From an uncultured bacterium (GTDB lineage Bacteria; Patescibacteriota; Minisyncoccia; Minisyncoccales; RBG-13-42-11), in NCBI GenBank assembly GCA_963790795.1, contig CAWBPO010000001.1:204073-268072 (forward strand): a stretch of DNA of 64,000 bases, in the 5' to 3' direction. This document shows, one piece after another, positions 1 to 47,537 of the stretch (position 1 is the stretch's first letter; each line of letters opens with the position of its first letter). The translations under genes were made by a program, and so were the position numbers. Below the pieces are notes generated by a model. That model was not told the DNA's origin, did not search any database, and was given only the letters and a program-made list of their open reading frames with translations.

Positions 1-377
1 TCCCGCCCGGACATAATGAAATTCCTGAAAAATACAGAGAAATCGGCCAGCCAGTCTTGATTCCAGGTTCAATGGGCACAGCTTCCTATGTTTTGGTCGG
101 TCAAAAAACCGGCCGAGAAGCATTCTTTTCTACTTGTCACGGTGCGGGCAGAACAATGTCAAGGAACGAAGCAAAAAGAAGAATATCTGGACAGGAAGTG
201 ATAAAAAGCTTAGAATCAAAAGGAATTATCGTGAAATGCCAGGACATGAAAGGAATTGCTGAAGAAGCGCCTCAAGCATATAAAGACATTCATGAAGTGG
301 TTGAAGTTGTTCACAAAGCTGGTTTATCAAAAAAAGTGGCAAGGCTCGTGCCTTTAGCTGTTATTAAAGGAGAATAA
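1..377 (+). CDS. rtcB: RNA-splicing ligase RtcB, C-terminal part (5' end lies outside the window)
   Basis: Frame is open from the window edge. HNEIPEKYREIGQPVLIPGSMGTASYVLVG...CHGAGR matches the conserved RtcB C-terminal core. Confidence 0.9.
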   Translation, partial: PPGHNEIPEKYREIGQPVLIPGSMGTASYVLVGQKTGREAFFSTCHGAGRTMSRNEAKRRISGQEVIKSLESKGIIVKCQDMKGIAEEAPQAYKDIHEVVEVVHKAGLSKKVARLVPLAVIKGE

Positions 378-383
378 TTGTTT

Positions 384-584
384 ATGAATAAATTGCCGAA
401 AAGTTTACGTAAATATATTCGTTTTGAAAAAGCCCGGATTCGCCGGGAAGTTTTAAATTCAAAAGAGCAGGAAAGATTGATTGATGAATTGTATAAAAAG
501 CTTACAAAACATAATAAAAACAATGAAAAACTACTCCTCAAAAAGAGCCAAAAAAGGAAAGTTGGCTTATCGGACGCCAAGTAG
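384..584 (+). CDS. small Lys/Arg-rich hypothetical protein
   Basis: AAAGGAGA Shine-Dalgarno about 10 nt upstream of ATG 384. 66 aa, very basic, no family recognised. Lies immediately after the rtcB stop. Confidence 0.5.
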   Translation: MNKLPKSLRKYIRFEKARIRREVLNSKEQERLIDELYKKLTKHNKNNEKLLLKKSQKRKVGLSDAK

Positions 585-625
585 GTTTATATATAAAAAA
601 ACAGAAGAAGCTGGAAAGCGAAGAA

Positions 626-2212
626 TCAGAAAACCTTAACCATATAAGTGTCTTCCAGCTTGTATCCTAATTTTCTGAAATAGTTTCTCGCTCCCACAGC
701 GGCAATTACGCTGATTTTTTTTAAGTTGAATTCTTTTTTCGTGATTTTTTCAGCTTCTTTGATTAATTTCTTGCCTAATCCTTGGTGCTGGGGTGATAGC
801 GCAGTTAAACGTTTTTCATTTATCGGCAGTTGCTGGCCGAAAGTGTGGATTTCACGGATAATTGCTTTATTTTGAGAGGTTTTTCTTAAACGGAGCAAGC
901 TGTAAAGCTTTGTTCTGTTTTTATTTTCAAAGCTTAAGAATATTTCTTTGCCTTCAGAAGCATTGTAATCTTTTCTGAATAAATGCAATTTTTCTTTTAT
1001 TTGATAATTATTCCTTACTTCCCTACATCTGATGCATTTACAATGCCAATTTTCATTTTTCATGTTTTGTTTTAAAATCTGGCGGATGTTGGAAATTTTG
1101 GCAGGACCGGCAACAATGCGAAAAGAAGGAATGTCTCTGCTTATCCTTTGTATTCTGACGTAAAAAGGAATATTCTTTTTTATTGTTTTAATCAGATTGA
1201 TTAATTGGTTTTTTGTGTAAGGCTTGTATTTTTTCTTTTTCCATAATTTATATAAAGGAGCTTCTTTTAAAAGGGCGCATGGATAGATTTTTAACAAATC
1301 CGGCTGGAGATCTGGATTTTTAAATAATTCTTTAAAAAGCTCTTTGTCTTTTTTAATGTTGGAGCCTGGCAAGTTGGGCATTATCTGGTAAAGAACCTTA
1401 AATCCTGCGTCTTTTAAAAGTTTTGTCGCTACGATTGTTTCTTTTACGCCGTGTCCTCTTAGGTTTATGTTGAGAATATCGTCATAAATTGTTTGAACTC
1501 CCAATTCAACCATTGTCGCGCCTAAATTTCTCAAGCGTTTTATTTCTTTCTTATCGATAAAGTCCGGTCTCGTTTCAATTGAAAGCCCAACTATTCTGTG
1601 TTTTGCTTTTTCATTAATTCTTTGAGCGTCTTTTAATGTTTTGCTTTTTCTTTTATTGCAGGCGTCAAAGCATCTTTTAACAAACCATTCCTGGTATTTT
1701 TTTGGATAGAAAGACCAGGTGCCACCGACAATCCTCAGCTCAATTTTGTCAGTGGGATGGCCTTCGTTTTCCAGCATTTCAATTCTTAATTTGGTTTGCA
1801 AGAAAGGGTCATAATTCAGTTTTTTAGCTCTTTCAACAGCCGGTTCTCCGGAAACATAGCTTTTCGGAATGTTTGCTTCTTGAGGGCAATAAAGGCATTT
1901 ACCAGGGCAAGGATATGGTTTTGTTAAAACTGAGATGTTGACTATGCCAGAAAGCGAACGAATCGGCCTTGTTATCAATAAAAGCTCCAAAAGTGGAGAT
2001 TTTTTTATCTTTTTCTTTTTGGTTAATTCGTGGTAAGTTTTTAATAGGGAAATGTTATCCGGGCAGGAGATTTTGTGTTTTTTAGCAGCTTTTCTCTTGA
2101 TTTTAGCTAAAGTATCCCGGTCTTTTACCCGATTTTTAATAATTTCTCTTATTATTAATTCTAAAGAATTCATGGATAGCAATTTTGCGAAATACTTATT
2201 AAATAAAACCAA
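626..2212 (-). CDS. elp3: Elp3-family radical SAM / GNAT protein (tRNA wobble-uridine cm5U synthase homolog)
   Basis: Radical-SAM cysteine cluster CPGKCLYCP, TIM-barrel region, and a C-terminal GNAT with QHQGLGKKL acetyl-CoA motif. The longest ORF starts at TTG 2212; an alternative ATG at 2173 (MNSLELIIREI) is at least as plausible. Confidence 0.85.
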   Translation of the reverse strand: MVLFNKYFAKLLSMNSLELIIREIIKNRVKDRDTLAKIKRKAAKKHKISCPDNISLLKTYHELTKKKKIKKSPLLELLLITRPIRSLSGIVNISVLTKPYPCPGKCLYCPQEANIPKSYVSGEPAVERAKKLNYDPFLQTKLRIEMLENEGHPTDKIELRIVGGTWSFYPKKYQEWFVKRCFDACNKRKSKTLKDAQRINEKAKHRIVGLSIETRPDFIDKKEIKRLRNLGATMVELGVQTIYDDILNINLRGHGVKETIVATKLLKDAGFKVLYQIMPNLPGSNIKKDKELFKELFKNPDLQPDLLKIYPCALLKEAPLYKLWKKKKYKPYTKNQLINLIKTIKKNIPFYVRIQRISRDIPSFRIVAGPAKISNIRQILKQNMKNENWHCKCIRCREVRNNYQIKEKLHLFRKDYNASEGKEIFLSFENKNRTKLYSLLRLRKTSQNKAIIREIHTFGQQLPINEKRLTALSPQHQGLGKKLIKEAEKITKKEFNLKKISVIAAVGARNYFRKLGYKLEDTYMVKVF

Positions 2213-2867
2213 ACAAGATTATAATCTAATTGCTGAAGATTTTTCAAGAACCCGTTGGAATATTTGGTCTGAGTTTGGCATTTTTAGAGATTATATTCAA
2301 GACGGAGACAAAGTTTTAGATGCAGGTTGCGGAAACGGTCGGCTTTTGGAATTGTTAAAAGACAAAAAAATTGATTATCTCGGTATTGATATTTCAGATA
2401 AACTGATAGAGTTGGCTAAGAAAAAATATCCCCAGAATAACTTTTTAATTGCCGACACTTTAAATTTACCATTTCCAGACGATAATTTCGATAAAGTTTT
2501 TTCAGTAGCTGTTTTACATACTATTCCTTCGTTTGAGTTTAGGGAAAAAGCATTGTTGGAGCTGAGAAGGGTTTTGAAGCCAGGCGGTATATTGCTGTTG
2601 ACGGTTTGGGATATTTTGCGTGCGAAAAATCTTTTTTTAGCTTTTAAACAATTTCTTCTAAAATTAATCGGAAAATCAAAATTAGATTTTGGAGATGCTT
2701 TTGTCTCTTGGGGTACAAAAACAAATAGATATTATCATTTTTTTACAAACAGAGAATTGAACACGTTAGTGAGTAAGGTCGGTTTTAAAGTAATTGGGAA
2801 AGGTGTTGCCCGGAACGAAAACAAAAAGCGTTCAAATGTTTATATAATTGCTAAAAAGCCCTCGTAG
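2172..2867 (+). CDS. Trm9/ALKBH8-like class I SAM-dependent methyltransferase
   Basis: YNLIAEDFSRTRWNIW, DAGCGNGRLL (motif I), LNLPFPDDNFD, SVAVLHTIPSFEFR, LKPGGILLLTVW and NRYYHFFTNREL parallel the yeast Trm9 signature blocks. ATG 2172 chosen; the 2052 extension would overlap elp3 and looks non-native. Confidence 0.8.
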   Translation: MDSNFAKYLLNKTKQDYNLIAEDFSRTRWNIWSEFGIFRDYIQDGDKVLDAGCGNGRLLELLKDKKIDYLGIDISDKLIELAKKKYPQNNFLIADTLNLPFPDDNFDKVFSVAVLHTIPSFEFREKALLELRRVLKPGGILLLTVWDILRAKNLFLAFKQFLLKLIGKSKLDFGDAFVSWGTKTNRYYHFFTNRELNTLVSKVGFKVIGKGVARNENKKRSNVYIIAKKPS

Positions 2868-2929
2868 TTTAATGGATAGAACATGAGTTTCCGGAACTCA
2901 AAATGCAGGTTCGATTCCTGCTGGGGGCA
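2858..2929 (+). tRNA. tRNA-Arg (anticodon CCG)
   Basis: Manual cloverleaf: acceptor GCCCTCG/TGGGGGC (two G-U pairs), D stem GTTT/GAAC, anticodon stem TGAGT/ACTCA with loop TTCCGGA, T arm GCAGG-TTCGATT-CCTGC, discriminator A. CCA is not encoded. Confidence 0.88.
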
Positions 2930-2944
2930 CTAGAATAAAGAATC

Positions 2945-2972
2945 TTGACAAACGCCATCACTCAATTAAACT
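2945..2972 (+). promoter_or_regulatory. sigma70-like promoter (TTGACA-16 nt-TAAACT)
   Basis: TTGACA at 2945-2950 and TAAACT at 2967-2972, just downstream of the tRNA. Confidence 0.4.
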
Positions 2973-2977
2973 TAAAA

Positions 2978-3136
2978 GTGAGGGGGTGCGGGTTTTTTGC
3001 CCAAAAGGACAGATAGTTTTTGACGAAGGAGATACCAGCAGCTGCCTAACAATGTCCAATTAGACTTAAGTGAATAATCAAGTTCATCAAGAGCTATTCC
3101 CCCTTATTAAAGAATCCGGCTTGAGCGGGATTTTTT
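2978..3136 (+). ncRNA. candidate small RNA (about 160 nt), identity unknown
   Basis: Bounded by the promoter above and a hairpin plus T-run at 3113-3136. No ORF. A 10-bp closing helix pairs AGTGAGGGGG (2977-2986) with CCCCCTTATT (3099-3108). An internal GGACA/TGTCC pairing is also possible. Confidence 0.35.
3113..3136 (+). terminator. intrinsic terminator-like hairpin
   Basis: AATCCGGC-TTGA-GCGGGATT (one G-G mismatch) followed by TTTTTT. Confidence 0.5.
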
Positions 3137-3170
3137 AATTTAAAGAGTTGTGTTAAAATGAGAATAGCTT

Positions 3171-3734
3171 ATGAATTACAAAATCGTTGTTTCAGGTGCA
3201 GCCAGAGTCAGTCATTGCTGCAGAAATATTAAAAAACTGTCTGAAGAGGTTGGCCGGGAAATCGCCAAGAAAAAGTGCATACTTGTTACCGGAGCGACTA
3301 CCGGCGTTCCTTACTTTGCTGCTTTGGGGTGCAAGAAAGCTGGCGGCTTTAACGTTGGTTTTTCGCCAGCCACTTCAGAAGTCGCTCATTTAAAAACCTA
3401 TAAACTGCCTTTAGAGCCCTTTGACGTTATGATTTACACTGGCGCAGATTATGTTGGTAGGGATACGCTTATGACAAAATCAGCTGACGCAGTAATCATC
3501 ATCTGCGGCAGAATGGGCACTATGCACGAATTTACCACTGCTTTTGAAATCCAAAAGCCAATGGGCATTTTGGAAGGAACGGGCGGGACAGCAGATAAGA
3601 TAAGGTCAATTATTACCGGCCCTCACCGTAGGGTAGCCAAGATCGCTTATGACGAAAACCCTAAGAAATTGGTTGAAGAGGTTATTAATTTGATAAAAAA
3701 AGAGAAAAAATCAAATTCAAAATATAAAAGCTAA
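3171..3734 (+). CDS. SLOG/LOG-like Rossmann protein (TIGR00725-type, 'lysine decarboxylase-like' family)
   Basis: VTGATTGVP nucleotide-binding loop and ICGRMGTMHEF, which resembles the LOG PGGxGTxxE motif. An extended -10 (TGTTAAAAT) lies at 3148-3156. Confidence 0.7.
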   Translation: MNYKIVVSGAARVSHCCRNIKKLSEEVGREIAKKKCILVTGATTGVPYFAALGCKKAGGFNVGFSPATSEVAHLKTYKLPLEPFDVMIYTGADYVGRDTLMTKSADAVIIICGRMGTMHEFTTAFEIQKPMGILEGTGGTADKIRSIITGPHRRVAKIAYDENPKKLVEEVINLIKKEKKSNSKYKS

Positions 3735-3765
3735 AGGTCGTATATATAAAATACATTTTAAAAAT

Positions 3766-4029
3766 ATGGCAGACGAAAAAAAAGAAGGAAAATTAATAGG
3801 CAGAATTACCCACTTTTTCGGCAATATCGGAGTGGCGGTAATTGAGGTTTCAGACAGATTGAGAGCCGGCGATACTATCAGAATTGTCGGCGGAAACGTT
3901 GATTTCGAGGAAAAAGTTGACTCAATGGAAATGGACCATCAGAGAGTCAGTGAAGCTAAAAAAGGCAATTCTGTTGGCGTGAAGGTTTCCCAGAAAGTTC
4001 ACGAAGGATACAAGGTTTTCAGGATATAG
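3766..4029 (+). CDS. translation-elongation-factor-like beta-barrel domain protein (EF-Tu domain II-like)
   Basis: 87 aa. GRITHFFGNIGVAVIEV...GDTIRIVG...GNSVGVKV pattern is typical of stand-alone EF-Tu domain-2-like barrels. Confidence 0.6.
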   Translation: MADEKKEGKLIGRITHFFGNIGVAVIEVSDRLRAGDTIRIVGGNVDFEEKVDSMEMDHQRVSEAKKGNSVGVKVSQKVHEGYKVFRI

Positions 4030-4095
4030 ATAAAACATATTAGAGGTTATTTTTCCGTCTAATTTTCAGATGCCTCTTTTGGCAGATTTATTGGG

Positions 4096-5343
4096 ATGAA
4101 GTTTATAGCGGATTTTCACATTCACAGCAAATATTCGAGAGCCACTTCCAGGGACATGGATTTGGAAAATCTTGATAAGTGGGCGAGAATCAAGGGCATT
4201 AAGGTTTTAGGCACGGGAGACTTCAGTCATCCGGAATGGTTCAAATCTTTAAAAGAAAAATTAGAGCCCGCAGAACTCGGGCTTTTTAAAATTAAAAAAC
4301 AGGATAACGCTACGCGTTTTATTTTAACCAATGAAATCAGTTGCATTTATTCCAAAAACGGGAGAGTCAGGAAAATTCATGTTTTAATCTTTGCTCCTTC
4401 TTTCGAGGCAGTTGAAAAAATTAACGTTCAGTTGGGCTGGATAGGCAATTTGAAATCAGACGGCAGGCCGATTTTGGGATTAGATGCCAAAGAATTGGCA
4501 AAGATTGTTTTAAGCGCTTCGGAAGACTGTTTGGTTGTGCCTGCTCACTGTATGACTCCCTGGTTTGCCATTTTCGGTTCGAAATCAGGGTTTGATTCAA
4601 TTGAAGAGTGTTTTGAAGACTTTTCAAAATATATTTATGCCATGGAAACTGGCCTTAGCGCTTCCCCGGCTATGCTTTGGAGGATGCCAGCTGGCAGGAA
4701 AACAGCTCTTATCTCAAACAGCGATGCTCACAGTCCGAGAAAAATAGGCAGGGAAGCAAATGTTTTTGATACGGAGTTAAGCTATAAATCAATTGTTGAA
4801 GCGATAAAAACTAAAGACTCCAAGAAATTTTTATATACCATTGAATTTTTTCCTGAAGAAGGCAAATATCATTTTGACGGCCACAGAAACTGCGAAATCA
4901 GACTTTCTCCTAAAGAAACCAAGAAATACAACGGCATTTGCCCGGTTTGCGGAAAACCGTTAACCATCGGAGTTTTAAACAGGGTTGACGAACTGGCTGA
5001 CAAAGAAGAAGGTTTTGAGCCGGAAAACGCCGTTCCTTTTAAAAGTTTGGTTCCTTTGGAAGAGATTATTGCCGATGCTTTACAAATGACCGTAAATACA
5101 AAAGAAGTTGAAAAATCATACAAAATCTTAATTGAGAAATTCGGTTCTGAGTTTAACGTTCTTCTTGAAGCTTCTTTGGAAAGATTGCAAGCGGTTGTTC
5201 TTCCTGAAATTGCCGAAGGAATAGTAAGGGTGAGAGGGGGAAAAGTAAGCAAAGAGCCCGGGTATGATGGAGTATTCGGGAAAATTAGAATTTTTAACCA
5301 AGGAGAAGAGAAAAAGTTGTCAAAGCAAAAAACCTTGTTTTAA
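4096..5343 (+). CDS. endonuclease Q (EndoQ) family protein, PHP domain + Zn finger
   Basis: DFHIHSKYSRATS, GTGDFSHPEW, SNSDAHSPRKIGREANVF, GKYHFDGH, CPVCGKPLTIGVLNRV and GYDGVFGKIRI line up with the conserved blocks of archaeal EndoQ. Confidence 0.85.
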   Translation: MKFIADFHIHSKYSRATSRDMDLENLDKWARIKGIKVLGTGDFSHPEWFKSLKEKLEPAELGLFKIKKQDNATRFILTNEISCIYSKNGRVRKIHVLIFAPSFEAVEKINVQLGWIGNLKSDGRPILGLDAKELAKIVLSASEDCLVVPAHCMTPWFAIFGSKSGFDSIEECFEDFSKYIYAMETGLSASPAMLWRMPAGRKTALISNSDAHSPRKIGREANVFDTELSYKSIVEAIKTKDSKKFLYTIEFFPEEGKYHFDGHRNCEIRLSPKETKKYNGICPVCGKPLTIGVLNRVDELADKEEGFEPENAVPFKSLVPLEEIIADALQMTVNTKEVEKSYKILIEKFGSEFNVLLEASLERLQAVVLPEIAEGIVRVRGGKVSKEPGYDGVFGKIRIFNQGEEKKLSKQKTLF

Positions 5344-6383
5344 GATTTCGGCAGCCAAGTTATCAGCTTATCTTTAATTTCAAACTTTCCTTCCGTGAAC
5401 TGCTCAATCACCCAAATATTGGTTTTGCAGTGATTGGTAATCTCAGAACTTGTAATCTGGGATTTGTTTTTTGATAAGGCCAAATAAGGCAGAATCTGGT
5501 CGCTAAGATATTTGTCCAAGCAGGCATTTGATTTTTCTTCTTTTAATAGTTCTAAAGCAGCTTCCTTGCCAATATCTTCAGCTCTTTTGCCTAATTTACC
5601 CAAATTGTCCTTGCCGATTATCGTATTTTCAAATTCAGCTATCAGACAAATTTGGCTGCCAGGACATTGAGTCAGATAGTATTCAACTCTTTTTTCTGTA
5701 GGCAGGTTTAATTTTCCTAAAACCTCTCTTGCTCCGGCTAATTGTCTCTCTGCCACTTTTTTCTCTTTCAAAGATTGTGAAGCGCCTGAGATTTGCACAA
5801 TCTTTTTGAGACTGCCTCGTTCAGTCAGATTAAGGCTTTTTAATTTTGCCGGAGAAATTTCCACTTCAACCTTTGCTCCGCCTTCAGGATAATAGCCTCG
5901 TTTTAAAATATTGATTTTGACTAAAGGAAAATCTTTATTTATTTTTTTGAGAATCGGCAAAAACACATAAACAAAATAATCAATGCTTGGAGAGAAAAAA
6001 GTATCGGTTGCTCCTCCTTCAAAGACAATTTTGACAGGATTTTGGGAAAAGAGCGACGCTGGGATCAGTGTTTGCAAGATTAAAGTAATGCTGGCCGCCG
6101 TTTCAATCTTTACTTGAATCTGTTGATGTCTAACTTCAACAGATTTTGAAGGATAGAATTTTATTTCTTCTGAACCGAATTTATCGCCTTCTAATTCGGC
6201 GTTGCTCAACCGGGCCAAAGCTTGAAGCCCTAAAAGGTGCTGCGGCATTAATCCCGGCTTTTCCCTTCCTTTTCTGATATTAAAAACACGGCAGGGTTTT
6301 TTGGTAACCGCCGACAAAGAGCAAGCAGTCCTGAGGATTTGGCCGCCGCCTTCCAAGTATGAACCGTCAATTTCAATCATCAT
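5340..6383 (-). CDS. rtcA: RNA 3'-terminal phosphate cyclase
   Basis: [48 protein letters not shown] is the canonical RtcA N-terminus. 347 aa. Confidence 0.92.
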
Positions 6384-13049: not shown

Positions 13050-13409
13050 ATGCCACTATTGTTGTTTTGGCAACCCAAGTTATTGCCGCCTCCCCGCTTT
13101 AAAGTATGCAAGCGATGCGGGGCAATTTGCGAATCGGCAATAAACAGATGCCCAGGCCTTATTTCCATTAACAAAATTAGTTTCTGGGAAAGGTTCTGGC
13201 GCAGACTCTTAAGAAAGCCAAAATACGGAGAGTTCTTTTTCATATGCGAAAGCGTAGACTTTCAAGAGGTAACATGCAGCATAGCGAAACAGGGAGTAAA
13301 GATCTATTTCCAAACTTGGCCGACTTGGCCCGATGAAAGAGCTTGGCGCCAGATATCTGCAAAAGACGACATGGAGAAATCTTCCAGAACAAAAAAGCCT
13401 ACTGATTAA
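13050..13409 (+). CDS. hypothetical Trp-rich protein with N-terminal zinc-ribbon-like CxxC...C motif
   Basis: Strong SD GAAAGGAGGT 5-6 nt before the ATG. CKRCGAICESAINRC motif. Visibly GC-richer than its neighbours. Followed by a bidirectional terminator. Confidence 0.6.
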   Translation: MPLLLFWQPKLLPPPRFKVCKRCGAICESAINRCPGLISINKISFWERFWRRLLRKPKYGEFFFICESVDFQEVTCSIAKQGVKIYFQTWPTWPDERAWRQISAKDDMEKSSRTKKPTD

Positions 13410-14529: not shown

Positions 14530-14548
14530 ATTAATAATTTAATTTTTG

Positions 14549-14899
14549 TGGAGATGGCGGGATTGGACCCGCGTCTGAGGAGTTTTTCTGAAATAATTCT
14601 ACAGGTTTAGTTCAGTTTTTTAGAAAGCATAGAGTCTAAACTGAACAAAATATCTATACCCTGAATCCAATTATTTTTCAATAGTTTTTCCGGATTCTGA
14701 AAAAACCATTTATCTCGCTAAGTTTGACACTCGATTTTGCTAAGCGAGAATCAGCAAAACGAATGGCTCTGCTACTTATGCGTAAGCAAGAGCAGGTTGT
14801 TTGAATAAGTTGGCACTTATCCTTTTTGCCAGTTTTTGCAAGTTCTGACAACTTGACCTGATTATTTCAGTCCGCTTCTCATCGAAGCATTTCATCCCC
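14549..14899 (-). ncRNA. ssrA: tmRNA (SsrA)
   Basis: 5' GGGGATG pairs with 3' CATCTCC, including the G3:U pair. T-arm GCGGGTCCAATCCCGC. Tag reading frame 14776-14814: GCC AAC TTA TTC AAA CAA CCT GCT CTT GCT TAC GCA TAA = ANLFKQPALAYA*. Confidence 0.9.
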
Positions 14900-15341
14900 G
14901 CATTTTTAATTCTCTTTCTATCTCTTTTTTAAGCGTTCTTTTTTTAATCGTTTCTCTTTTATCCGCTTTCTTTTTTCCTTTTGCTATGCCAAATTCCAGT
15001 TTTATTTTAGCTTTTTTAGTATATACCTTTAATGGCACTAAAGTCAATCCTTTCTCTTTTGTTTTGCCGATCAGGTACTTAATTTCAGATTTTTTCAAAA
15101 GAAGCTTTCTCGGACGCTCGGCTAGATAATCGGAAGGAGCGTTTTTAGGCTGATAGGGTGGGATATTGGCTCCAACCAGGAAGATTTCCCCATTATTTAA
15201 AGTCACATAGGAGCCAGCTAAGTTTATTCTTCCTGTTTTGATTGATTTTACTTCTTGTCCGATTAAAACAATACCAGCCTCGATTTTCTCCAGGATTTCG
15301 TAGTTAAAATATGCTTTTTTGTTTTCAGACAATACCTTCAT
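14892..15341 (-). CDS. smpB: SsrA-binding protein SmpB
   Basis: NKKAYFNYEILEKIEAGIVLIGQEVKSIK.... Confidence 0.95.
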   Translation of the reverse strand: MKVLSENKKAYFNYEILEKIEAGIVLIGQEVKSIKTGRINLAGSYVTLNNGEIFLVGANIPPYQPKNAPSDYLAERPRKLLLKKSEIKYLIGKTKEKGLTLVPLKVYTKKAKIKLEFGIAKGKKKADKRETIKKRTLKKEIERELKMRG

Positions 15342-40775: not shown

Positions 40776-41333
40776 GTGAATTCAGGAACTAAATGGGCTC
40801 TAGTAATCTTTGGAGTAGTGATTGTTCTCTTGCTCTTTGGCTTTCTTGTTCCGGCCAAACAGGAAGCCTATACTGTTCAGGAACCCTATGACGCTCAAGA
40901 AGCCTATACTGTTCAGGAACCCTATGAAGTCATAGAGACTTATACCGAAAAAGAGCCGTATGAGGCTACGGAATACTATACGGCGTATGTGCCATACACT
41001 TATCGGGTTATTTGCGGCCAAGATTGCCGTCCAGGACCAGGACCAGGACCAGGACCAGGGCCAGGACCAGGGCCAGGACCAGGACCAGGACCCAATCCAC
41101 ATCCAGGACCAGGACCAGGGCCAGGGCCACAATGTGTCCCTCGTTATTGTACAGAGCAGGGAATTCAAGCCGTAACACAGAGTCGGACCGTCACAAAGTA
41201 CCGGGACGTTGAGAAACAGAGGACTGTTACTAAATATAAGGAGGTAACAAAGTACCAAACCGTCACAAAGTACAGACCTGTTCCTCATTATCGAATGGTC
41301 CCTCTATTTAGCTCCACGCCGCCATCCAATTGA
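40776..41333 (+). CDS. membrane-anchored tandem-repeat protein with (Pro-Gly)n tract
   Basis: GTG start 5 nt after AAGGAGGT. One TM helix. Four ExYTxxEPYxxx repeats, then C...C-(PG)13-PNPH-(PG)5-C...C, then TVTKY(R/K/Q) repeats. GC-richer than the genome background. Confidence 0.7.
   Translation: MNSGTKWALVIFGVVIVLLLFGFLVPAKQEAYTVQEPYDAQEAYTVQEPYEVIETYTEKEPYEATEYYTAYVPYTYRVICGQDCRPGPGPGPGPGPGPGPGPGPGPNPHPGPGPGPGPQCVPRYCTEQGIQAVTQSRTVTKYRDVEKQRTVTKYKEVTKYQTVTKYRPVPHYRMVPLFSSTPPSN
40863..40927 (+). repeat. 36-nt-period tandem duplication inside the CDS
   Basis: GAAGCCTATACTGTTCAGGAACCCTATGA occurs identically at 40863-40891 and 40899-40927. Confidence 0.9.
41031..41128 (+). repeat. (CCAGGA/CCAGGG)n hexanucleotide simple-sequence repeat encoding (PG)n
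   Basis: Two blocks, 41031-41092 and 41103-41128, of CCAGGN units. Confidence 0.95.
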
Positions 41334-44231: not shown

Positions 44232-46181
44232 TTAGTTTATTTTAATTTTCTCAACTGCCTCAGAAAGCATTTGGCAGTAAAGGTTCAGTCCGACTTGGTT
44301 GATGCTGCCTGACTGCTCTTTGCCCAAGATATTGCCTGCTCCCCGTATTTCCAGGTCTTTCATGGCGATTTTATATCCGGAACCCAATTCTTCAGCTTCT
44401 TTTAAGGTTTTTAATCTTAATTTTGCCAGAGGGGATAATCTTTGCGGATAAAGGAAAAAGGAAAAGGCCTGGATATGAGAACGGCCGATTCTTCCCCTGA
44501 TTTGATAAGCTTGAGAAAGTCCTAATCGAGTGCTGTCAGCCACAATTAAAGTATTAACATTGGGCAAGTCCAGCCCGTTTTCAATAATAGTTGTTGCTAC
44601 TAAAACGTCAATTTTTCTGTCTTGGAAGTCATTCATTGTTTTTAACAGTTCTTTTTCTTTCATTCTGCCGTGAGCAATAGCGTATTTTGCTTTTGGGAAT
44701 AATTTTCTCAAAAACTCTTTGATTTTTTCAATCGTTTCCACTCTGTTGTAAAGAAAATATATTTGTCCTTTTCTTTTAATTTCGTTTTCAATTGCTTTTT
44801 TAATAATTTCTTCTTTAAAGGGCGATAAAAAAGTTTTGATTGGCAAGCGGCCAATCGGCGGCGTCTGAATCAAGCTGATGTTTTTTAGAGAAGAAAGCGC
44901 CATATATAGTGTGCGGGGGATGGGCGTGGCAGAAAGCGACAAAACATCCAGAGAAGCTCTCATTTTTTTAAAGCTTTCTTTTTGTTTTACGCCAAATCTC
45001 TGTTCGTCGTCAATAATTAAAAGACCAAGATCTTTAAAATCAATATCTTTTGACAAAAGACGATGAGTAGCGATAACAATGTCAATTTTGCCGGTTTTTA
45101 ATCCTTCAATTGTTTCTCTTTGTTCTTTTTTCGTTTGCAGCCGCGATAGTAAGGATGTTTTTATCGGCAAATTTTTCAATCTTTCTTTAAACTTCTGGAA
45201 ATGCTGGTTTGCCAGAATTGTTGTCGGACAAATCATTGCTGCCTGTTTGCCGGAAATCACTGCTTTAATTATCGCCCTTAAAGCCACCTCAGTTTTGCCA
45301 AAGCCCACATCCCCGCAGACTATTCTGTCCATCGGCTCGTTTTTTTCCATGTCTTTTTTAATATCTTCAATGGCTTGCGACTGATCAGGCGTTTCTTCGT
45401 ATTTGAAGGTGTCTGACAAATGCTTTTGGATTTCTTCTTCTGGCAAATAAGGAGGTCGAAGAGCAGTTTCTCTTTTGGCATAAATTTGCAAAAGCTCTTT
45501 TGCCAGTTTTTCCGCTTCCTCTTTTATCTTTCTTTTTACTTTTTGCCAGAGAGATGAACTCAGTCTGGATATTTTCGGTTCGACAAAACCGACGTATCTT
45601 GATAATTTTCTTTCCAAGCCGATTGGTACATATAATTTATCGTCTTGGGCATATTCTAATTGATAATATTGCTGGTTAGCGATTGCCAGCTGCTGAACGT
45701 AAATTCCGATTCCATGGTCCAAATGAACCAAATAATCGCCAGGTTTCAGCCCTTTCAAATCGGAAAACAACTTCTGCGATTTTAATTTCTTTTTTAAAAT
45801 TTCCTTTGCTGCTTTTTCGTCTTTGATTTCTACGGGAAGTTGTTCAATGTTTTCGATTTTATTGCCCAGGAATTCGAAACGGACAGCCTTTATTGAATTA
45901 ACAGGGAAGACGTCAATAATTCCCCCTCTTTGCGAAAATTCTCCCGGTTCTGAAACCTGCCAAACCCTTTCATATCCCATTTCGTCCAGTTTCCTTAAAG
46001 TCTGAGAAAGATTATTGTTTTGGTTTTCTTCTAAAAAAAGAACATTATCCTCAAAGAATGTTTGGGTTTTTCTCGCTTCCAGAATTTTATTAATATTTTC
46101 CTCAAACCAAAAGTTCCCCTTTTCCAGAAAGTAGGGGGTGATGCTGCAAATTAAAACACTTTCTAACCTTGACAAAATCAT
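44232..46181 (-). CDS. mfd: transcription-repair coupling factor, N- and C-terminally reduced form
   Basis: CarD-like RID (LKPGDYLVHLDHGIGIY) and SF2 translocase motifs (GDVGFGKTEVA, DDEQRFG, SATPIPRT, QIRGRIGR). 649 aa, compared with about 1150 aa in model bacteria. Confidence 0.85.
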   Translation of the reverse strand: MILSRLESVLICSITPYFLEKGNFWFEENINKILEARKTQTFFEDNVLFLEENQNNNLSQTLRKLDEMGYERVWQVSEPGEFSQRGGIIDVFPVNSIKAVRFEFLGNKIENIEQLPVEIKDEKAAKEILKKKLKSQKLFSDLKGLKPGDYLVHLDHGIGIYVQQLAIANQQYYQLEYAQDDKLYVPIGLERKLSRYVGFVEPKISRLSSSLWQKVKRKIKEEAEKLAKELLQIYAKRETALRPPYLPEEEIQKHLSDTFKYEETPDQSQAIEDIKKDMEKNEPMDRIVCGDVGFGKTEVALRAIIKAVISGKQAAMICPTTILANQHFQKFKERLKNLPIKTSLLSRLQTKKEQRETIEGLKTGKIDIVIATHRLLSKDIDFKDLGLLIIDDEQRFGVKQKESFKKMRASLDVLSLSATPIPRTLYMALSSLKNISLIQTPPIGRLPIKTFLSPFKEEIIKKAIENEIKRKGQIYFLYNRVETIEKIKEFLRKLFPKAKYAIAHGRMKEKELLKTMNDFQDRKIDVLVATTIIENGLDLPNVNTLIVADSTRLGLSQAYQIRGRIGRSHIQAFSFFLYPQRLSPLAKLRLKTLKEAEELGSGYKIAMKDLEIRGAGNILGKEQSGSINQVGLNLYCQMLSEAVEKIKIN

Positions 46182-46196
46182 TCAATTAGGTATAAT
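46169..46196 (+). promoter_or_regulatory. consensus sigma70 promoter (TTGACA-16 nt-TATAAT) overlapping the mfd start region
   Basis: TTGACA at 46169-46174 and TATAAT at 46191-46196. Predicts a leader of about 225 nt for the GGDEF gene. Confidence 0.55.
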
Positions 46197-46202
46197 ATAA
46201 TA

Positions 46203-46427
46203 TATTGTTCTTTTTTGTCAAAATTTTACCTTGCAGTCTGCCTGCCGGTGGCTTAACCGAGCACATAAATTTTTTATGTGCTCAGGGATGGATTCTAAGT
46301 TATCCCTCCTTTAACTTAGTGCCCTAGGTTACGGATTTGGACTTTTGTTTCTGATTCATAACGCTTGCAGGTAGACTGGAGGGCGAAATATTTTTGCTCT
46401 TAATAATTTAAATAAGGGAAGGTAAAA
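46203..46427 (+). promoter_or_regulatory. structured 5' leader (riboswitch-like candidate) upstream of the GGDEF gene
   Basis: Closing helix 46234-46242 with 46370-46378 (9 bp). Helix 46254-46258 with 46327-46331. Perfect 11-bp hairpin at 46259-46283. Interleaved helices 46284-46289/46302-46307 and 46295-46301/46313-46319 have H-type pseudoknot topology. CCCTCC (46304-46309) is complementary to GGAGGG (46378-46383). Confidence 0.45.
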
Positions 46428-46925
46428 ATGAAAGAAAGAATAAAAGCTGCCTATGTAGCTTTTCGTAATCCCGCTGTTGTAGAAGTTCGTGATGCTTTGA
46501 CAGGCGCGATGACTCGCAGAGAATTTCTGCGAATAGCTGGTAAGATATTGAATCGCGCTCAGAGAAACAGTCAAACAATCTCATTGGTGATGCTTGATAT
46601 GGATGGATTGAAGGCCATCAACGATGCGCAAGGACATAGGGCCGGGGATATGGCAATAAAAACACTTGCCAAAACCATCTTCGACAACATGCGGCCCTTG
46701 GATATTTGCGCACGCTGGCACGGCGATGCCGGCGACGAGTTTATTCTAGTTCTCTTAGATGTAAATTTAAGAGATGCTATAAAAGTTGTTCGGCGTATTC
46801 AAAAAGTGTTTCCCGGGTTTTCCTGGGGGATCACTCAATCTGGATTAGATGATAGTGATACCTTAGAATCCATGATTGACCTCGCCGAAACACGTATGTA
46901 TCGCCAGAAAAATAAAAAAAAGTAA
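46428..46925 (+). CDS. stand-alone GGDEF-domain protein (putative diguanylate cyclase) with variant HGDAGDEF active-site motif
   Basis: DALTGAMTRREF, LVMLDMDGLKAINDAQGHRAGD, RPLD (RxxD I-site-like) and WHGDAGDEFILVL. No sensor domain. GC-richer than its flanks. Confidence 0.8.
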   Translation: MKERIKAAYVAFRNPAVVEVRDALTGAMTRREFLRIAGKILNRAQRNSQTISLVMLDMDGLKAINDAQGHRAGDMAIKTLAKTIFDNMRPLDICARWHGDAGDEFILVLLDVNLRDAIKVVRRIQKVFPGFSWGITQSGLDDSDTLESMIDLAETRMYRQKNKKK

Positions 46926-46929
46926 ACCG

Positions 46930-46966
46930 GGCGGGGACAGCGTTCTAATCGTTGCCCCGCTATTTT
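46930..46966. terminator. bidirectional terminator hairpin between the GGDEF gene and pth
   Basis: GCGGGGACAGCG (46930-46941) pairs with CGTTGCCCCGC (46949-46959), with a T-rich tract downstream. Confidence 0.6.
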
Positions 46967-47537
46967 ATTTATTATATGTATTCATTGCCTTTTGCAGCCC
47001 TTTGTTTATTATTGTTTCAACCGCTTTGCCAGTTTTTTTTATTACTTCTTTTGCAATCTTTTCCTCTTCTCTATTAAATTTTTGAAGAACAAACTTATCT
47101 AAAGCTTTAATCTTTAAGTTGTTGTTTTTTGCTTTTATACCGATACGCAATCTTATAAAATCCTTTGTTTTCAGTTCATTGATTATTGATTCCACGCCTT
47201 TGTGATTAGCTGCTCCTCGATTCTTAGCAATCCTTATCTTGTTTAAAGGAATATCAATATCATCGTGAATGACAATTAAATCCTTAGTTTTCGATTCCAG
47301 ATTTTTGAGTAACAGCTTCGCCGATTTTCCGGAAAGATTCATGAATGTTTGCGGTTTGGCAAGAACAATCTTTTGGTTATTATATGTTCCTTTTGAAACT
47401 TCAGCGTTGAAAATTGATTTAAAAGTGAAAGCTGGAAAATTAAAATTATCAGCAATCTCATCTATTGCTCTGAAGCCGATATTGTGTCTTGTCTTTTCGT
47501 ATTTTTTGTCCGGGTTTCCCAGACCGATAATAAGCAT
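46965..47537 (-). CDS. pth: peptidyl-tRNA hydrolase
   Basis: MLIIGLGNPDKKYEKTRHNIGF. Confidence 0.94.
   Translation of the reverse strand: MLIIGLGNPDKKYEKTRHNIGFRAIDEIADNFNFPAFTFKSIFNAEVSKGTYNNQKIVLAKPQTFMNLSGKSAKLLLKNLESKTKDLIVIHDDIDIPLNKIRIAKNRGAANHKGVESIINELKTKDFIRLRIGIKAKNNNLKIKALDKFVLQKFNREEEKIAKEVIKKTGKAVETIINKGLQKAMNTYNK

Follow-up and report, generated by a model that had tools for sequence, protein, structure and literature searches.

The DNA between mfd and pth in the 64-kb stretch analysed here (the window) encodes a stand-alone GGDEF protein behind a long leader, which a preliminary description read as a structured and possibly riboswitch-like control region of a possibly acquired gene. 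Here we asked what this leader is, how far it can be told apart from the gene behind it, and what it might act on.

The leader (46203-46430) folds with a predicted minimum free energy of -78.7 kcal/mol, compared with -50.3 +/- 4.6 kcal/mol for shuffled sequences (z = -6.2, with 0 of 200 shuffles as good). A covariance model, R1, places a structured RNA of ~180 nt at 46220..46402 on the + strand, behind a consensus promoter, with 202.7 bits and E = 1.8e-63; the antisense strand scores 23.8 bits, and the RNA is single copy within the window. Promoter and RNA were located together in 13 distinct Paceibacteria (CPR) loci, always with mfd on one side (topA in L004) and pth on the other. Across these 13 sequences, which represent only ~5 independent lineages and were compared in two structural alignments, hand-fitted or model-fitted, 94.6% of the cells are paired and 29 of the 55 base pairs show compensatory changes. 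Paired cells amount to 93-95%, versus at most 53% with the partners slid, and none of 500 shuffles reached the observed covariation score. The RNA core is also the best-conserved DNA of its neighbourhood, at 97% identity to L001 and 81% to L023, where the neighbouring CDS reach 75-85% (five CDS) and 58-73%, respectively. The leader is thus a real RNA of several helices, as had been suggested, and it is conserved; the sense and antisense scores place it on the + strand. We infer both of its ends from the sequence, with the 3' end near 46390-46402.

A search of the window region against Rfam 15 to E <= 10 gave no family at threshold, the c-di-GMP-I and c-di-GMP-II riboswitches that had been suggested included; the best were chance matches at E = 0.2-10. 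Four distant loci of the RNA gave nothing at E <= 5, and the tmRNA and tRNAs of the same window were detected normally. The RNA is absent beside pth in Nealsonbacteria loci, so its distribution looks limited to a sub-clade.

The sigma-70 consensus promoter of the RNA lies at 46169..46196 on the + strand (-35 TTGACA, 46169-74; -10 TATAAT, 46191-96). It had been described before as a consensus promoter, and TTGACA-16-TATAAT matches at 12/12 positions; every one of the 13 loci keeps TTGACAAAWYCAT...TATAAT, and transcription would start at about 46203. A mirror promoter for mfd, on the - strand at 46194..46221 (-35 46221-16, -10 46199-94), matches at 11/12 positions and has the AT-rich -10 block in common with the RNA promoter. 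From it mfd, with its ATG at 46181, would be nearly leaderless. Many other genes look leaderless too: -10-like boxes occur 4-13 nt before 20% of starts versus 2.5% in the background, an 8-fold enrichment in the genome. SD-like 5-mers 5' of starts stand at 8.5% versus a background of 6.6%, making the genome almost SD-free. Strong SDs nevertheless precede all cargo ORFs behind the RNA and, since SD sites are nearly lacking in the genome, these SD-led genes are rare exceptions. The 64 kb contain just three strong SDs in a good position, among them that of the GGDEF gene (AAGGGAAGG, 46415..46423, + strand). The scan called no clear intrinsic terminator between RNA and GGDEF gene in the window, so the RNA is physically a leader here. 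The bidirectional terminator reported at ~46931-46960 is legible in the sequence as a hairpin (GCGGGG...CCCCGC, 46931..46960) with T-runs on both strands, though the terminator scan made no call. It is common to the GGDEF gene and the convergent pth (46965-47537, - strand), and L001 and L023 have a homologous hairpin 3' of their GGDEF genes.

The helices of the RNA, all on the + strand, are as follows. P0 pairs AUUUUACCUU (46223..46232) with AGGGCGAAAU (46380-46389), with compensatory changes such as UUUCGCC/GGCGAAA versus UUUUACC/GGGUAAAA. P1 and P1b (CAGUCUGCCUGC plus CGG, 46234..46248) pair with 46364-46378; here A-U becomes G-C, G.U becomes A-U or G-C, and C.A mismatches recur at the same positions. 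The closing helix of the preliminary description (46234-42 with 46370-78) has covariation support and belongs to P1, a 12-bp helix running on into P0. Together, P0 and P1 form a universal closing rod of ~25 bp, in which 8 of 25 pairs never vary and P1 is kept in sequence as well as in pairing. The 3' strands of P1b, P1 and P0 span 46364..46389 and include an SD-like GGAGGG (46378-46383). Farther in, P2 (GGC, 46250..46252, with GCC, 46321-46323) is 100% paired, changing from GGC/GCC to AGC/GCU in L015 and L016. The 11-bp hairpin noted earlier is a variable hairpin, Pv (46259..46283, with a 3-nt loop), whose sequence is replaced in relatives while the pairing is retained: it is only 43% identical to L001, with 11/11 pairs compensatory, and is absent in L017. 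Hairpin P4 (46333..46357) is 98-100% paired, with GGAC/GUUY changed to AAAC/GUUU in L023 and other hairpins in its place in L013, L015 and L017.

Three further pairings had been drawn. Both the first pseudoknot helix (46284-89/46302-07) and the inner helix (46254-58/46327-31) are complementary within the clade, but their covariation is not above that of shuffles. The purine-rich segment at 46284..46294 (AGGGAUGGAUU in the window, GGAGGAUGGAUU in relatives), which could mask the C-rich loop described below, is complementary to it in most sequences, with covariation neither possible nor seen, and is missing in L017. Lastly, CCCTCC and GGAGGG are complementary in 95% of cells, but both sides are invariant and two varying positions are uncompensated. 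This pairing is without demonstrable support, and GGAGGG instead pairs with the covarying 5' strand of P0. A local hairpin, GAGGGCGAAA/UUUUGCUCUU (46379..46401), rivals P0 for the GAGGGCGAAA strand. It shows A-U to G-C changes in L002 and L004 and is kept in L023, but it is absent in L011, L013, L015 and L017 and is hence not universal.

What had been described as the second pseudoknot helix (46295-46301/46313-46319) is the stem of a universally conserved, covarying hairpin (46295..46319) whose loop, 46302-46312, carries AUCCCUCCUU. Five of the seven stem pairs change on both sides: CUAAGUU/AACUUAG in the window corresponds to CUAAGC/GCUUGG in L013, CUGAGC/GCUCAG in L017 and AUAGGU/ACCUAU in L015. 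The 10-nt core of the loop is unchanged in 13/13 sequences, and the anti-SD-like CCCUCC element picked out earlier is the most conserved feature of the RNA. An exposed, conserved C-rich seed, as in SD-targeting sRNAs of the RsaE/RoxS kind, is present as AUCCCUCCUU in the hairpin loop in 13/13. The loop also resembles the general 3' tail of 16S rRNA (...AUCACCUCCUU...) minus one base, an 11-nt match with one gap. We found no extended target of the loop in the 64 kb, only generic SD complementarity. Since complementarity to the loop is part of being an SD, the SD-pairing idea is unfalsified rather than supported. In its strictest form, this idea would make the RNA a mimic of the 16S 3' tail, an abundant anti-SD decoy that captures the few SD-led mRNAs (leadered or accessory ones, and its own cargo) or titrates a 16S-tail-binding factor; we regard this form as doubtful.

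The rod and the loop could also be read as protein-binding or processing elements. The rod (CUGCCUGC/GCAGGUAG) would then be a recognition site for an RNase III-type enzyme or another protein, cleavage within it would free the RNA from the cargo mRNA, and the loop would titrate or recruit a protein that binds the 16S 3' end, for example Era, YbeY, RsmA/KsgA, S1 or S21. A rod of ~25 bp is sufficiently long for RNase III, P1 is conserved in sequence with 8 of the 25 rod pairs invariant, the loop resembles the 16S tail, and ybeY lies within the same conserved gene block. This reading is purely inferential, however, as the context names no protein partner and a base-pairing RNA fits the same features. 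We consider it possible but not probable. The strong promoter, and ends that pair in a long stem as in 6S RNA, Y RNA and rRNA precursors, could instead indicate a very divergent housekeeping RNA (6S, SRP, an RNase P fragment or Y RNA) or else the decayed remnant of an rRNA operon, processing stalk and 16S tail included, given that standard models often miss CPR RNAs. None of these Rfam models matched at E <= 10, though, while the tmRNA and tRNAs of the window were found; on reading the sequence we saw neither a GNRA/SRP domain IV motif nor a 6S-type central bubble nor RNase P conserved regions, and the distribution looks sub-clade-limited. This origin appears highly improbable.

The genes behind the RNA separate it from the GGDEF gene. 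GGDEF family A follows it in the window, L001, L002, L023 and L007 (the last with an in-frame stop), and an unrelated TM-GGDEF/mCpol-like gene follows it in L011. Elsewhere its place is taken by a 60-aa ORF (L004), a 66-aa ORF (L005, L007), a Cys-rich 53-56-aa ORF (L005, L006) or a 79-aa ORF (L015); these four kinds of small ORF gave no Pfam match. In L013 and L017 there is no ORF, and the RNA runs directly into the terminator or the 3' end of pth, with the terminator directly 3' of the RNA in L013. At least six mutually unrelated cargo types, or none, therefore follow the RNA, and the slot is, judged from these sequences, a site of gene turnover. Conversely, a GGDEF family member, P0135 (L024), has no RNA and a short plain 5' UTR only. 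The RNA is independent of the GGDEF gene, and the earlier view of it as a GGDEF control element does not hold, because it persists with other cargo or none (L004-L007, L011, L013, L015, L017). Nor does recent acquisition, since relatives whose Pth is as little as 59% identical still have the order mfd-RNA-GGDEF-pth (L001, L023). The GC enrichment cited for it exists (gene 0.434 versus a gene mean of 0.380 +/- 0.036; RNA 0.415) but is modest (z = 1.5, 5th of 60).

This variety of cargo also bears on whether the RNA is a cis-acting riboswitch, or another leader responsive to a ligand or to temperature, by which the translation or transcription of whichever ORF comes next is gated. Its aptamer would be the junction closed by P0 and P1, and its expression platform the choice between P0 and the 46379-46401 hairpin. 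The GAGGGCGAAA strand does have two mutually exclusive partners with compensatory changes in each, the junction core is very strongly conserved, 46224-32 is perfectly complementary to the region just 5' of the AUG (a pairing used in the MFE structure of the window), and an SD-led ORF without its own promoter lies ~15-60 nt 3' in 10 of 13 loci. Yet the RNA and its promoter are retained in L013 and L017 with no ORF to control, the cargo genes are mutually unrelated and one GGDEF homologue lacks the RNA, while the competing hairpin is missing in four loci, predicted SD sequestration varies by locus and Rfam offers no riboswitch match. A cis-acting leader is therefore an unlikely explanation.

Two unrelated GGDEF-type genes, of family A and of the L011 type, occur behind the same RNA, and the family A pairing is old, reaching across the deepest split among the sampled loci (L023), so that some functional link may exist. 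In its full form, RNA and cyclase would be a functional pair in which the RNA might, for example, be the cyclase's sensor, scaffold or substrate, and the cyclase-less loci would be decaying remnants, and the L011 TM-GGDEF is also above the mCpol threshold. Against such a pair, the cyclase is gone or broken in six lineages in which the RNA and promoter are intact and under selection, a family A relative does without the RNA, and PADLOC returned no defence-system match. We give this pairing little credence.

The GGDEF protein is by itself ordinary. It has 165 aa (46428..46925, + strand) and, as described, is a bare, sensor-less GGDEF domain with an RPLD I-site and an insertion variant of the signature, RW-HGD-AGDEF; PF00990 matches residues 21-164 with E = 4.5e-26 and 92 bits (cut-off 23.8), and there is no other Pfam match. 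The sequence motifs quoted in the first description are all present. Aligned with the GGDEF domain of T. maritima (4urs), which is also the best Foldseek match (4urs_A, TM 0.80), the protein has 'ARWHGDAGDEF' where that domain has 'ARYGG---DEF', a 3-residue insertion together with A in place of the first G. Residues 97-103 fall within the motif-hairpin loop of an AF2 model (pLDDT 87.6). Activity is possible in enzymes that carry AGDEF. Relatives carry the canonical RWGGDEF (L023, P0135 and others) or HGE-GGDEF (P0134), and the HGD insertion would be a derived feature of one sub-branch. D57, D59, N65 and D74 are invariant in alignments with cyclases, and the equivalents of PleD N335/D344 and the metal-binding Asp are retained. 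Synthesis of other cyclic dinucleotides, raised at first, is disfavoured because the Asn (IND) and the Asp (GHRAGD) that contact guanine are both present. Hypr-GGDEF enzymes, which produce cGAMP, have Ser (Ser/Thr) at the guanine-specifying Asp of GHxxGD, and GHRAGD keeps the Asp. The window protein probably synthesises c-di-GMP in the ordinary way, as part of a family of sensor-less GGDEFs in CPR. The 57 of 60 window ORFs scanned gave no Pfam match to an EAL, HD-GYP or PilZ partner, in line with the first description.

We propose, at what we judge to be even weight for and against, that the locus encodes a structured RNA that stands alone and whose anti-SD-like loop acts on SD-like sequences or a 16S-tail-binding factor, with the GGDEF gene as a co-transcribed passenger. 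Under this proposal, 46220-46402 would be a non-coding RNA gene of its own, with a consensus promoter, which a clade of Paceibacteria (Parcubacteria, CPR) has conserved. The rod closes a junction bearing variable hairpins and the one universal hairpin, whose loop, AUCCCUCCUU, would be the working end, pairing with SD-like purine tracts or diverting, as a decoy, some factor specific for the 16S tail. Two purine tracts within the RNA (46284-94; GGAGGG, 46378-83) might cover this loop. Because the organism hardly uses SD sites, such an anti-SD mimic would touch only a handful of SD-led mRNAs, which would include, in cis, the ORF behind the RNA. The GGDEF gene would be a facultative passenger between the RNA and its terminator; lacking its own promoter, it is likely co-transcribed with the RNA, and, since leaderless translation is not open to it, it would need an SD.

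A large part of bacterial diversity belongs to the CPR/Patescibacteria, and to our knowledge almost nothing is known of their regulatory RNAs. The RNA described here is a strongly supported structured RNA from CPR with no Rfam 15 match. Its signature is simple and testable: a covarying stem topped by an unchanging loop similar to the 16S tail, within an SD-poor genome. If the loop acts on SDs or on 16S-tail-binding factors, it would reveal how initiation modes are partitioned in leaderless-dominated bacteria. If the RNA were a true 16S-tail mimic, it would be a dedicated RNA layer over SD-dependent translation in an ultra-small bacterium largely past SD initiation, and its 3' side a docking slot for exchangeable genes. 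The variable slot also illustrates how reduced genomes gain and lose small genes, c-di-GMP cyclases included, behind a strong RNA promoter.

Compared with PleD, WspR and T. maritima TM1788, the window protein has the same fold, metal- and guanine-binding residues, RxxD I-site and GDEF core. It differs in having no sensor, only a conserved ~20-aa N-terminal helix (R.KAAW.AF..PE), in the HGD insertion in the motif hairpin with A for the first G, and in being ~14 residues shorter near the C-terminal sheet. The minimal CRISPR polymerase mCpol of Panoptes is likewise a small stand-alone palm-domain nucleotide cyclase with no sensor (PMC12657218, PMC12657230). The window protein shares this small, stand-alone, sensor-less form; it has no PF18182 match at E <= 1 and no PADLOC match, PF18182 being matched only by the unrelated L011 cargo. 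Unlike mCpol, it has no adjoining 2TM effector gene, its neighbours being mfd and pth of a housekeeping block.

The RNA is comparable to translational riboswitches and other leaders in which an anti-SD hides the SD (such as preQ1-II, SAM-II, ROSE/fourU thermometers) in having a CCUCC-type element in a structured 5' region before an SD-led ORF, a pseudoknot-capable topology and alternative pairings of one strand. In contrast to these, it survives without an ORF (L013, L017), has no consistent gene association and no Rfam match, and its internal GGAGG/GGAGGG partners lie at a long distance from the start codon. It also resembles the RsaE/RoxS and LhrC-type sRNAs of Gram-positive bacteria, which are small structured RNAs with their own promoters and exposed C-rich loops complementary to SDs; its proposed action, like theirs, is on ribosome-binding sites. 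It has no sequence or Rfam relationship to them and one loop where they have several. Its junction fold, closed by the ~25-bp rod, is far more elaborate, the match of its loop to the 16S tail extends past the CCUCC core, and, unlike theirs, its host is almost SD-free and the RNA often carries a downstream ORF.

The leader between a consensus promoter (46169-46196, matching at 12 of 12 positions) and the GGDEF gene contains a genuine structured and conserved RNA at 46220-46402 on the forward strand. The leader fold reaches z = -6.2 relative to shuffled sequences. Homologous loci were gathered by three routes: through close GGDEF homologues, by exact 20-mer matches to the RNA in collections of genomes and metagenomes, and through Pth homologues of falling identity. 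These yielded 13 distinct copies, all lying 3' of the same TTGACAAAWYCAT...TATAAT promoter, divergent from mfd (topA in locus L004) and convergent on pth. Between the window and locus L001, identity is 97% in the RNA core (46284-46389) and 75-85% in five neighbouring genes; for the more distant L023 the values are 81% and 58-73%. The hairpin at 46259-46283 is just 43% identical between the window and L001, with its pairing retained. A covariance model trained on nine copies found exactly one match per locus (203 bits sense versus 24 antisense) and picked up four distant copies at 51-96 bits. In a model-based alignment of the 13 sequences, with which an alignment of the universal modules curated by hand agrees, both being fitted to the structure and covering only about five independent lineages, 94.6% of cells hold standard pairs (at most 52% with partners slid), 29 of 55 base pairs show compensatory changes, and none of 500 shuffles reached the observed covariation score. 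The RNA belongs to an unclassified family: a permissive Rfam 15 scan of 45900-47200 returned nothing but chance matches even at E ≤ 10, and for this RNA neither Rfam at gathering thresholds over the whole window nor a scan of four distant loci gave anything better. A viral copy was also sought; an 18-mer of the core had no match in viral contigs, and a degenerate 18-mer of the rod matched one high-GC phage, a hit that the covariance model rejects and that we attribute to chance.

The fold is built from universal and clade-specific modules. The universal ones are P0 (46223-46232 with 46380-46389), which covaries between UUUCGCC/GGCGAAA and UUUUACC/GGGUAAAA; P1 with P1b (46234-46248 with 46364-46378); P2, three base pairs of GGC/GCC, or AGC/GCU in L015; and a loop hairpin (46295-46319). 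P0 and P1 together form a rod of about 25 bp. The loop hairpin corresponds to the second helix of the pseudoknot proposed in the preliminary description. Its stem differs by lineage with pairing kept (CUAAGUU/AACUUAG, CUAAGC/GCUUGG, CUGAGC/GCUCAG and AUAGGU/ACCUAU), and its loop core, AUCCCUCCUU, is unchanged in 13 of 13 copies. Clade-specific are the variable hairpin (46259-46283), the P4 hairpin (46333-46357), which covaries in comparison with L023, and a purine tract (46284-46294) able to pair with the C-rich loop. This last pairing is the first pseudoknot helix as originally described. It is favoured by the minimum free energy (MFE) fold; its covariation, like that of the proposed inner helix and the CCCUCC:GGAGGG pairing, does not rise above shuffles, and none of the three can gain such support because the loop is invariant. 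Since only about 3 nt separate them, the two pseudoknot helices at full length look more like alternatives than a coexisting pair. Instead of forming P0, the GAGGGCGAAA strand can pair within a local hairpin (46379-46401), which shows a compensatory change of its own and is missing from four lineages.

Three positions of the rod carry A.C or C.A mismatches that recur, unrepaired, across homologues of different lineages: 46228/46384, 46237/46375 and 46241/46371 (columns 9/103, 18/94 and 22/90 of the RNA alignment A3). The window itself has just the first, A46228 opposite C46384. The segment UUUUACCUU (46224-46232) perfectly complements AAGGUAAAA (46419-46427) right before the GGDEF AUG, a pairing used by the MFE fold and not shared by L001 and L002. 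Conserved sequestration of the Shine-Dalgarno (SD) sequence was rejected, as nine leader MFE folds mask the ribosome-binding site with differing partners or none. Hidden reading frames were likewise discarded: a 40-aa TTG ORF (46205-46327) crosses the hairpin whose sequence is swapped in relatives, and mini-ORFs after GGAGGG vary in frame and length between loci.

What lies behind the RNA turns over from locus to locus. The family of the 165-aa window protein (family A) occupies this position in the window, L001, L002, L023 and L007, in the last with an in-frame stop. The L011 product is unrelated (21% identity) and combines a membrane helix at its N-terminus with an RFGGDEF motif. Elsewhere the cargo consists of small SD-led ORFs without a Pfam family: 60 aa in L004 (3169-3348), 66 aa ('FQVGDK...') in L005 and L007, 53-56 aa with four Cys in L005 and L006, and 79 aa in L015 (3412-3651) and L016; the small-ORF regions of L005 and L006 span 1430-1835 and 137-304. 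L013 and L017 have no cargo: in L013 the RNA runs directly into a terminator, and in L017 the entire pth-mfd spacer measures 170 nt. The reverse case also occurs: the GGDEF relative P0135 lacks the RNA, its gene being preceded by a plain promoter with a UTR of about 35 nt. The RNA is independent of the GGDEF gene, and, most simply read, the locus is an RNA gene separated from its own terminator by a slot in which genes turn over. A true riboswitch or leader is a less likely rival; the RNA is kept with unrelated cargo or none and matches no Rfam riboswitch, and it is neither a riboswitch for GGDEF, as first suggested for this gene, nor a known one. A retron-like arrangement, an inverted-repeat-closed noncoding RNA with a palm-domain enzyme, was dismissed, since the RNA is also kept where no polymerase gene accompanies it. 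The rival of a functional RNA-cyclase pair draws on two observations: two unrelated GGDEF-type genes, family A and the L011 type, recur behind the RNA, and the order mfd-RNA-GGDEF-pth is kept in L023. Since Pth is 59% identical there, this synteny shows an old pairing and not a recent import; the loci with other cargo or none speak for independence. Recent horizontal acquisition, proposed earlier from GC content, finds no footing, given the conserved synteny and a GGDEF gene that is no GC outlier (z = 1.5). Two of the cargo genes deserve description. In L011 (5578-6084, reverse strand), from a close relative, the 168-aa protein lacks RxxD and matches both GGDEF and mCpol, the latter at 29.7 against a Pfam threshold of 26.4. 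In L007 (2600-3106, reverse strand), the homologue reads RWHGENGDEF with a single stop at INDA*GH, which may mark a pseudogene or reflect an error in sequencing.

The window ORF (46428-46925) encodes 165 aa with a sole Pfam match, GGDEF (92 bits, residues 21-164), and is a new member of this known family. Its best solved-structure match is the isolated T. maritima GGDEF domain, where ARWHGDAGDEF aligns to ARYGG---DEF, so the three-residue insertion noticed earlier is real. In the AlphaFold2 model (pLDDT 87.6) the fold is the usual one and the loop of the motif hairpin, residues 97-103, is enlarged, and Foldseek returned diguanylate cyclases only (top 4urs_A, TM 0.80). GTP specificity is expected because the metal- and guanine-binding residues D57, D59, N65 and D74 and the RPLD I-site (RxxD) are retained. 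In Hypr-GGDEF enzymes, the position equivalent to D74 is Ser. The protein is probably an ordinary c-di-GMP synthase. An exhaustive HMMER search collected stand-alone GGDEFs of 160-170 aa in about 15 clusters, 38-47% identical, which have in common an N-terminal helix of the form R.KAAW.AF..PE. Nearly all of them, and the syntenic L023 homologue, have canonical RWGGDEF; the insertion is confined to a sub-branch comprising the window (RW-HGD-AGDEF), L001 (RW-HSD-AGDEF), L007 (RW-HGE-NGDEF) and the relative P0134 (RL-HGE-GGDEF). On this distribution the variant motif is, judging from sequence, a derived insertion and not a separate enzyme class. There is no mCpol match for the window protein, and scanning 57 of the 60 window ORFs turned up no EAL, HD-GYP or PilZ domain, which agrees with the missing partner already remarked upon. 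A defence system was considered and set aside: PADLOC was empty, and mCpol matched solely the unrelated L011 protein.

The genome in which the RNA resides is AT-rich (38% GC), and its nearest database relatives are annotated as Candidatus Pacebacteria/Paceibacterota, with one Ca. Saccharibacteria. Its SD-poor character is plain. Ahead of 59 ORF starts, SD-like pentamers are at background (8.5% versus 6.6%) and -10-like boxes at a distance of 4-13 nt upstream of the start codon show an 8-fold enrichment (20% versus 2.5%), so initiation appears to occur mostly on leaderless or SD-less mRNAs. A well-placed strong SD precedes three genes only in the 64 kb, ORF 13050, ORF 40776 and the GGDEF gene; in the other loci a strong SD likewise precedes each cargo ORF. 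ORF 13050 (13050-13409, forward) encodes a 119-aa Cys-containing protein without a family. ORF 40776 (40776-41333, forward) is the GC-richest ORF (0.495), is conserved in L001, follows a 5' UTR that measures about 85 nt, and encodes a membrane-anchored product with abundant QEPY, PGPG and TVTKY repeats.

Other features of the surroundings were noted. At 46169-46221 the RNA promoter and a mirror-image mfd promoter on the reverse strand use one AT-rich -10 block, so RNA polymerase may be forced to pick a direction; the mfd ATG (46181) falls within the spacer of the forward promoter. In L001 (about 5637-5745), as in L009 and L010, an insertion of about 95 nt separates mfd from the RNA promoter. 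It is bounded by a 16-nt inverted repeat, CCCCGTTAGAAATTTT / AAAATTTCTAACGGGG, of which the right arm alone is left in L004, and may be a miniature mobile element. Farther away, a tmRNA (14546-14899, reverse; Rfam 125 bits, not reported by ARAGORN) adjoins smpB (14892-15341), and an RNA-repair-type neighbourhood (57-6383) contains RtcB, cut at the window edge, a radical SAM protein, tRNA-Arg, an SLOG-family protein, a 415-aa ORF without a family and RtcA.

The invariant loop matches 11 nt, with one gap, of AUCACCUCCUU, the conserved 3' tail of bacterial 16S rRNA. We propose, with about even confidence, a structured RNA that stands on its own and works through its 16S-tail-like loop, either pairing with SD-like tracts or serving as a decoy for some factor able to recognise the 16S tail. 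Such pairing would involve the rare SD-led mRNAs in trans and the RNA's own cargo in cis, with the internal purine tracts masking the loop and the GGDEF gene riding along as a co-transcribed passenger. From the sequence features we infer the transcript ends, the co-transcription and the partner of the loop. In an SD-poor genome an anti-SD-like loop would find very few partners; a search of the window for the loop complement gave only scattered sites, all of them mismatched at one position or more. The rod is long and conserved in sequence, and a protein or RNase III might act on it to free the RNA from the cargo mRNA. On a less probable rival reading, the element would be a protein-binding or processing RNA; the rod and the likeness of the loop to the 16S tail fit that reading too. 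A divergent housekeeping RNA is a further, improbable rival. An informal comparison with 6S, SRP, RNase P, Y RNA, T-box, c-di-GMP-I/II and ykkC, good for leads only, showed no defining motif of these in the RNA. Among known systems, the RNA resembles C-rich-loop sRNAs and anti-SD leaders; its architecture and genomic setting are unusual.
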